This document shows, one piece after another, positions 51,146-51,649 of a DNA stretch of 54,185 nucleotides. The position numbers were made by a program, and so were the translations under genes. Source of the DNA: Nitrospirota bacterium. GTDB taxonomy: Bacteria > Nitrospirota > UBA9217. Position 1 is the first letter of the stretch, and every line of letters begins with the position of its first letter. The stretch lies in assembly GCA_029858565.1 (NCBI GenBank), contig JAOUEV010000018.1, positions 1 through 54,185 on the forward strand, written 5' to 3'. Below the pieces are notes generated by a model that was not told the DNA's origin, made no database searches, and was given only the letters and a program-made list of their open reading frames with translations.

Positions 51146-51649
51146 ATGCATACACCGTTCGGCTGGGCCGGGGCGGCAGCGTCGGACAAAGGCGTTGTCG
51201 CGATCATCCTTCCGAGGAAGTCCAAAGCCGCGGTCGCGCGTGAACTGGAGAACGCTACATGCCGGCCCGAAGCTGGTGGTGCTGTTGCTGAAAGGCTGCT
51301 CGCGAAAGTCGTGAAGCAGCTGGAGCGTTATTTCAAGGATCGTTCGATGACCGGTGATCTCCCGCTCGATCTTCATGGACATACGCCGTTTCAGCAGGCT
51401 GTTTGGAAGGCCGCTGCCGAGATACCTTGTGGTGAAACGCGGTCCTATGCGTGGATCGCGAAGCGCATCAAAAGACCGAAAGCGGCGCGGGCTGTTGGAC
51501 AGGCAATGGGAGCCAATCCCGTGCCGTTGCTCATACCCTGACACCGGGTCATCAGCTCAGCCGGGTCGCTGGGCGGGTTCGCGGGGGGATTGGAATTGAA
51601 GAAGAAGCTGCTGGAATGGGAAGGGATAAAAGTTATTCATTGCGGCTAA
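51146..51649 (+). CDS. ogt: methylated-DNA--protein alkyltransferase (Ogt) with predicted selenocysteine at the active site (PUHR)
   Basis: [38 protein letters not shown](51539-51541)[27 protein letters not shown]; SECIS-like hairpin at 51555-51574. Confidence 0.85.

Follow-up and report, generated by a model that had tools for sequence, protein, structure and literature searches.

A reading frame at 51146-51649 of the window (the whole stretch of DNA that was analysed, 54,185 nucleotides long) raises the question of whether a DNA-repair alkyltransferase gene has been broken at its active site or encodes a selenoprotein. The frame comprises 168 codons from ATG to TAA on the forward strand, and its single internal in-frame stop, a TGA at 51539-51541, takes the place of the alkyl-accepting cysteine of the Ogt/MGMT family. 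Selenoproteins are, with few exceptions, redox enzymes whose selenocysteine (Sec) is recycled, and an Ogt is a stoichiometric acceptor, spent by its own reaction. Because an Ogt is destroyed by the reaction that it performs, a Sec form would be a costly use of selenium, and an odd one in terms of mechanism. The gene has the following parts:

51146..51649, + strand: coding sequence of a predicted Sec-type Ogt/MGMT, 167 residues including U132, plus TAA; translated with TGA as U
51539..51541, + strand: UGA codon at the alkyl-acceptor Cys position of the PCHR motif; placed from the sequence, and aligned with the Cys of solved Ogt chains and with the TGC/TGT or TGA of orthologues
51647..51649, + strand: true stop codon TAA, from the sequence

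This is an intact, full-length Ogt/MGMT gene with UGA as its catalytic Cys codon. The read-through protein begins MHTPFGWAG, and its active-site motif is IP-U-HRVI, with the UGA on the Cys column. PF01035 (DNA_binding_1), the profile for the part of Ogt/MGMT that binds DNA and carries the active site, matched it with an E-value of 1.9e-35 and 121 bits (cut-off 27), aligning to residues 81-161 across the TGA, and TIGR00589 (NCBIfam) matched with an E-value of 4.7e-34 and 116 bits (cut-off 46.4). The N-terminal domain PF02870 (Methyltransf_1N) gave a weak match, below its cut-off, at an E-value of 0.0015. The best solved relatives were chains of Ogt, Ada-C and human MGMT, with E-values from 1.8e-28 to about 1e-21; they align over GETRSY..AARAVG..NP...PCHRVI, and their PCHRVI falls opposite P-U-HRVI of the window protein. 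The helper and DNA-binding residues of Ogt, namely the Tyr of RSY, the Arg of RAVG, the Asn of NP and the C-terminal Glu, are aligned with the solved Ogt chains and conserved in orthologues. The initial annotation had placed the sole in-frame stop exactly on the PCHR Cys and had described an intact Ogt C-terminus continuing in frame to the TAA; the sequence and its translation bear out both, with PF01035 matched over profile positions 1-81 of 81, to its last position. It had also expected standard annotation to call the gene truncated, in keeping with the translation under table 11, which ends the frame at 51541. We infer that the nucleophile at the PCHR Cys position is Sec instead of Cys. We consider it highly probable, given the sequence comparisons described below, that the UGA at 51539-51541 is read as selenocysteine and that this is a selenoprotein gene, as predicted.

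In the mechanism that we propose, SelB-GTP-Sec-tRNA(Sec) would bind a hairpin downstream of the codon and deliver Sec to the UGA, and the ribosome would go on to complete all 167 residues. In a single irreversible step, like that of the thiolate in Cys-Ogt, the selenolate of U132 would then accept the alkyl group of O6-alkylguanine, and each repair event would use up one protein and one Sec. Compared with the Cys form, the Sec form might have faster kinetics or accept a wider range of adducts, as had been suggested for it at the outset.

One family of relatives bears on what a shorter product might do. Alkyltransferase-like (ATL) proteins carry another sense residue at the Cys position and are not known to transfer alkyl groups. 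Like the window protein, they have a PF01035-type DNA-binding domain and no Cys codon (3gva). Classification of the window gene as an ATL was tried and rejected: it has a UGA with a SECIS, an N-terminal domain is also present, and 3gva matched with an E-value of 3.2e-9, as against 1.8e-28 for true Ogt.

A selenium-dependent switch would add to the main reading: the full-length protein would be made with selenium, and without it a truncated product of 131 residues that has no active site and is perhaps an ATL-like DNA binder. Decoding of UGA as Sec competes with termination, and the ATL proteins are related, though the match is weak; the truncated product would, however, be without the last 35 residues of the PF01035 domain, and nothing in the data favours a function of the 131-residue fragment. 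We regard such a switch as unlikely.

The reading of the UGA as Sec depends on the machinery of the host, and the initial annotation had accordingly proposed that selA, selB, selC and selD be sought. The window corresponds to contig C24 in a genome (G000) of 3.9 Mb and 144 contigs, estimated to be 100% complete, and all four genes were found there above curated cut-offs. The selB gene (389 bits, cut-off 242) and the selA gene (604 bits, cut-off 268) are adjacent on contig C101. Two selD genes scored above the cut-off, each of the Sec type, with one in-frame TGA near the N-terminus (C3:2406-2408 and C14:90556-90558). A single tRNA-Sec, with a score of 64 bits, lies on contig C73, and ARAGORN gives its anticodon as TCA. 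Three formate-dehydrogenase-type genes contain an in-frame TGA, namely two fdhA genes on C41 and C7 and an fdnG-like gene in the window. The pair of Sec-type selD genes and the TGA-bearing fdhA genes suggest a selenoprotein-rich genome. TGA terminates 1331 of the 2624 open frames of at least 300 codons and is the commonest terminator of these long frames, so the code is not reassigned.

Two side observations concern this machinery. With the fdnG-like gene the window holds a further selenoprotein gene, for an fdnG/fdhA-like molybdopterin oxidoreductase at 36625-39435, whose TGA (37096-37098) lies in the context EHQARI-U-HSATVA and has a GGG-loop hairpin downstream. The tRNA-Sec (C73:36061-36155) and selB (C101:16483-18369) lie on separate contigs; a 2026 review describes selC as embedded in or overlapping selB in some Nitrospirae (PMC13188914), which is not the arrangement of this genome.

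Downstream of the UGA, the coding sequence contains the putative SECIS element:

51551..51578, + strand: SECIS-like hairpin within the coding sequence; lower stem 51551-53/51576-78, upper 7-bp stem 51555-61/51568-74, loop CGGGUC at 51562-67; from the minimum free energy (MFE) fold

The hairpin spans codons +4 to +13. Its upper stem, GCUCAGC (51555-51561) paired with GCUGGGC (51568-51574) around the loop CGGGUC (51562-51567), had been pointed out from the letters of the sequence, starting 13 nt past the UGA and with a G-rich loop, and it emerged as the core of the MFE fold. The loop begins 20 nt after the UGA, and in the MFE fold the 3-bp lower stem, 51551-51553 with 51576-51578, lengthens the hairpin. 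We judged such elements by the consensus rules for bacterial SECIS, a UGA-proximal stem-loop with an apical G. In the two canonical fdhA genes, which lie outside the window, a 7-bp stem begins 11 nt past the UGA and carries the loop GGUCU, and one of the two selD genes has the loop AGGUC; the 7-bp stems of that selD gene and of fdhA start 11-12 nt after the UGA, compared with 13 nt in ogt. An initial comparison of the ogt hairpin with the SECIS of the fdhA-like gene in the window was roughly right, but the geometry is not identical, as the GGG of the loop starts 23 nt after the UGA in that gene and the loop 20 nt after it in ogt. A search of the entire window against Rfam, at gathering thresholds, returned 0 matches, so no catalogued RNA family covers the ogt SECIS.

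Thermodynamic stability was considered as evidence for the hairpin and dropped. The fold had a z-score of -0.34, with 69 of 200 shuffles folding at least as well, a value that does not discriminate in G+C-rich coding sequence. A comparable hairpin, defined by a 7-bp stem, GG within the loop and similar spacing from the TGA, lies downstream of 1271 of the 133,633 TGA trinucleotides genome-wide (0.95%). A single hairpin taken alone is weak evidence, and the case rests on comparison with relatives.

The codon at the PCHR position was compared across related genomes in two samples. The first held 61 related genomes, 58 of which had an Ogt match, and among the 30 best loci the codon was TGA in 16 and TGC or TGT in 14. 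The second, drawn evenly from the phylum, comprised 401 genomes, of which 382 had a match at an E-value of 1e-15 or below; one in-frame TGA was present in 28 of the best 150 matches listed, with 294 weaker matches beyond these. All 28 TGA matches among those listed belong to the window's own family (f1) and fall in 11 genera, and no in-frame TGA was seen in the other 43 families of the phylum among the matches listed. In a 29th genome of the family, G036, the match that contains the TGA is split. For each of five genera (g1, g10, g15, g17 and g19), the matches listed include Sec as well as Cys forms. Another 20 loci were added to the orthologue set, for a total of 50 examined; the motif was found in 49 of them, with TGA as the exact PCHR codon in 28 and TGC or TGT in 21. 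Alternation between TGA and a Cys codon at this position, which the initial annotation had proposed to look for in relatives, was therefore found. Among 80 genome_contigs loci, records that overlap the sampled genomes and are not independent of them, the motif was present in 74: the 14 with TGA were all labelled Nitrospirota, Nitrospirae or similar, and the 60 with Cys codons came from many phyla. As a separate observation, an Ogt-like match in another family of the phylum (G129:C46:11113-11463) contains one in-frame TAG.

The genome holds a single PF01035 match, the gene at 51146-51649. Sec-bearing relatives mostly have a single Ogt match as well, with a second, Cys-type match in four genomes of the first sample (G007, G009, G023 and G029). 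Since it is the only PF01035 gene in this genome and mostly the only one in the Sec relatives, the Sec protein is presumably the working alkyltransferase of this genome.

The hairpin was scored in 27 complete Sec forms, as 1 of the 28 is cut by a contig end, and in 21 Cys forms. All 7 stem pairs were present in 23 of the 27 Sec forms and in 3 of the 21 Cys forms (L028, L051 and L156), 6 of 7 in 4 Sec and 2 Cys forms, and 5 or fewer in 0 Sec and 16 Cys forms. At least 6 of the 7 pairs were thus retained in 27/27 complete Sec forms versus 5/21 Cys forms; the downstream hairpin, whose conservation was to be checked, is kept in every complete Sec form and lost in most Cys forms. The loop fits NGGNNC in 27/27 Sec forms, with GG at positions 2-3; AGGUAC was seen 16 times and the window's CGGGUC twice. 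Entropy at third codon positions in 15 Sec forms was 1.20 bits in the 45 upstream codons, 0.60 at codons +1 to +14 and 0.97 after them, compared with 1.26, 1.42 and 1.20 in 14 Cys forms. Synonymous sites are frozen over the hairpin in UGA forms only, a pattern diagnostic of an RNA element embedded in coding sequence. Residues downstream of the codon, too, vary less among TGA forms than among Cys forms.

Among the 27 Sec forms, there were no compensatory double changes in the stem; the stem was invariant apart from pair 5, which changes on one side only (A-U/G-U/G-C), and four breaks, all of pair 1. As no double-sided changes occur, the support for the element consists of conservation and of the contrast between Sec and Cys forms, not of covariation. 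Part of the stem conservation comes from the protein, given that the stem codons encode the conserved SSAG.LGG. Separately, we noticed that residue 121, 11 before U132 (QAMGANP), is Met in 15 of 27 Sec forms but in just 1 of the 21 Cys forms, where Leu prevails, in counts uncorrected for kinship. This contrast may reflect co-adaptation near the active site or shared ancestry.

These comparisons also bear on the remaining alternatives. The UGA could be read as something other than Sec, as Cys or Trp by near-cognate decoding or under a reassigned code; near-cognate read-through of UGA does occur in bacteria. We hold this to be very unlikely, given a genome in which TGA is the commonest terminator of long frames (1331/2624), the full selABCD set is present and the in-frame TGAs from family searches lie in the classic selenoprotein genes selD and fdhA, and given a SelB-type hairpin that is conserved specifically in the TGA forms.

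A recent nonsense mutation, leaving a pseudogene or a truncated product of 131 residues, seems extremely unlikely. One base change turns TGC or TGT into TGA, the frame under table 11 does stop at 51541, and the hairpin alone is statistically ordinary, but TGA occupies the position in 28 of the 49 orthologue loci and in 11 genera among the matches listed, the frame downstream is open with the Pfam profile matched to its last position, and the residues beyond the codon are better conserved in TGA than in Cys forms. A nonsense mutation would also have struck the only PF01035 gene in a genome estimated to be 100% complete. The initial annotation had noted that Cys in all close homologs, with no SECIS conservation, would speak for such a mutation; more than half of the orthologue loci have TGA instead, and the hairpin is kept.

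The chance that the TGA is a sequencing or assembly error for a real TGC or TGT is close to nil, since the genome, although fragmented into 144 contigs, agrees with a separately built Logan contig of run X1 (11,983 nt, depth 12.3; 0 differences over 51100-51700) and 27 other genomes have the same codon. Run X1 may be the source sample, so its match checks the assembly only and not the biology; the argument for biology over error is therefore carried by the 27 other genomes. Contigs of runs X2 and X4 over the UGA, at depths of 2-8, had no difference among the rows listed and were given no weight. The reading of the UGA as Sec at the acceptor site of an Ogt, directed by a SECIS, is thus supported by the machinery, the codon alternation, the conservation of the hairpin and the assembly check.

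The Sec and Cys forms lie in the same surroundings. The neighbours of ogt in the window are as follows:

49521..51098, + strand: murJ, lipid II flippase, upstream neighbour (PF03023, E-value 2.1e-127); beside ogt in 30 of 30 loci
52074..52784, + strand: metallo-beta-lactamase (MBL)-fold hydrolase, downstream neighbour (PF00753, E-value 1.2e-37); beside ogt in 27 of 30 loci

The murJ-ogt-MBL arrangement is common to Sec and Cys forms, and with the same neighbours on either side the two states are alleles of one orthologous locus. We infer from the sequences that the Sec and Cys states have interchanged at this locus. A gene tree of 30 orthologues over 165 columns needs 8 Sec/Cys changes in its maximum-likelihood form, but it leaves 16 of its 27 inner branches unresolved, and no more than 1 change is forced by the starred branches; in 64 of 500 shuffles of the labels on this tree, as few changes were needed as for the Sec label itself. 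A tree of 165 columns is too weak to count or polarise the Sec/Cys switches. The best single hint of a reversion from Sec to Cys is the position of L028, a Cys form with a perfect hairpin that grouped with the Sec forms L036 and L032 of the same genus at a support of 94/96. The full 7-bp hairpin was recorded in five orthologues with a Cys codon (TGT or TGC), namely L028, L051, L156, L062 and L131, with the loop AGGUAA in place of AGGUAC in L062 and L156. The hairpins of these Cys forms are likely to be fossil SECIS elements left after reversion from Sec to Cys.

A broader history can be offered tentatively, and we think it possible but rather doubtful. In it, Sec-Ogt would be ancestral in family f1 and the sole alkyltransferase in this genome and in most Sec relatives. 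It would have persisted in at least 11 genera, and repeated returns to Cys would have left fossil SECIS elements behind. If this were true, selection would favour a selenolate even in a protein that does no redox chemistry and turns over once, although every lesion would cost one Sec. The possible gains would be activity without Asn-assisted activation of the thiolate, activity at low pH, or activity on bulkier adducts, and the clade would be a natural paired Sec/Cys system in which to test the use of Sec outside redox chemistry.

Proteins of this kind have been predicted before. A Sec family named 'methylated-DNA-protein-cysteine methyltransferase' was first reported in 2005 as CHY0809 of Carboxydothermus hydrogenoformans (PMC1287953); the authors stressed its suicidal, non-redox nature and took the Sec form to be confined to a single species and to have 'evolved very recently'. 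In later papers, the family is counted in a metagenome of gutless-worm symbionts (PMC1976440) and in GOS (PMC2398784), stands under 'predicted' in a 2022 review (PMC9312934) and appears in the table of prokaryotic selenoproteins of a 2026 review (PMC13188914). The initial annotation had tentatively placed Sec forms of the family in selenoproteome surveys, and these five sources prove it correct. CHY0809 and the window gene share the PF01035/COG0350 fold, a UGA for the active-site Cys, a stem-loop just downstream, a host with selA, selB, selD and tRNA-Sec, and a prediction made by Sec/Cys homology; membership of the window gene in this kind is assigned by the shared Pfam family and by the Sec position as the papers describe it. 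The catalogued forms compared come from Firmicutes and deltaproteobacterial symbionts, whereas the host here belongs to an uncultured family of Nitrospirota. Also in contrast to CHY0809, called a recent form of one species in PMC1287953, the Sec form described here occurs in 11 genera among the matches listed, at one syntenic locus.

The view that no Sec form had been characterised biochemically stood in one respect and not in another. For a natural Sec-Ogt, a search of a literature library with few subscription journals found no characterisation. An engineered human AGT with Sec at the acceptor position (U145), however, protects an E. coli host without ada and ogt against MNNG and is thus active, and in the same work the N137A change kills the Cys form of AGT but not the Sec form (PMC4150793). 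The activity of the engineered protein in E. coli makes Sec chemistry at the acceptor site plausible. The two proteins are alike in having Sec, predicted in ours, at the alkyl-acceptor position, but the engineered one (PMC4150793) was made on a human scaffold from a UAG codon with EF-Tu and tRNA-UTu, without SECIS or SelB. The window protein keeps the Asn (GANP), the residue that was changed in N137A. With the Cys-type Ogt, Ada-C and human MGMT (4wxc, 1sfe and 1eh6), it has in common the domain, the helix-turn-helix, the RSY, RAVG, NP and P-x-HR-V motifs and, presumably, single-turnover alkyl transfer. It differs from Cys-Ogt in its predicted Sec nucleophile and in a SECIS within the coding sequence that constrains its codons.

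The window gene is a real example of an already catalogued, predicted Sec-Ogt family. On paper the kind dates from 2005, and the gene adds breadth to it without opening a new question. Sec-Ogt is not a one-species curiosity: numerous genera of a single Nitrospirota family have it at a fixed locus, and here it is the sole Ogt; its use in this family is apparently wide and long-held. The pairs of Sec and Cys orthologues at one locus within a genus are suited to kinetic comparison. The finding also flags a systematic error of annotation, in which Sec-Ogt genes are called truncated.

The intergenic sequence on both sides of ogt contains short repeats. Between the murJ stop and the ogt ATG, at 51100-51131, lies a tandem heptamer repeat of ~4.6 copies of GGAGTGC/AGTGCGR. 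Arrays of at least 3 heptamer units number 33 genome-wide, on both strands, and 51100-51131 was found at very high depth, in many short contigs, in all four metagenome runs compared; the array looks like a dispersed short repeat. The ~420-nt gap between ogt and the MBL-fold hydrolase (51650-52073) holds short ORFs only, has no Rfam match and includes a short 8-nt tandem repeat at 52018-52037.
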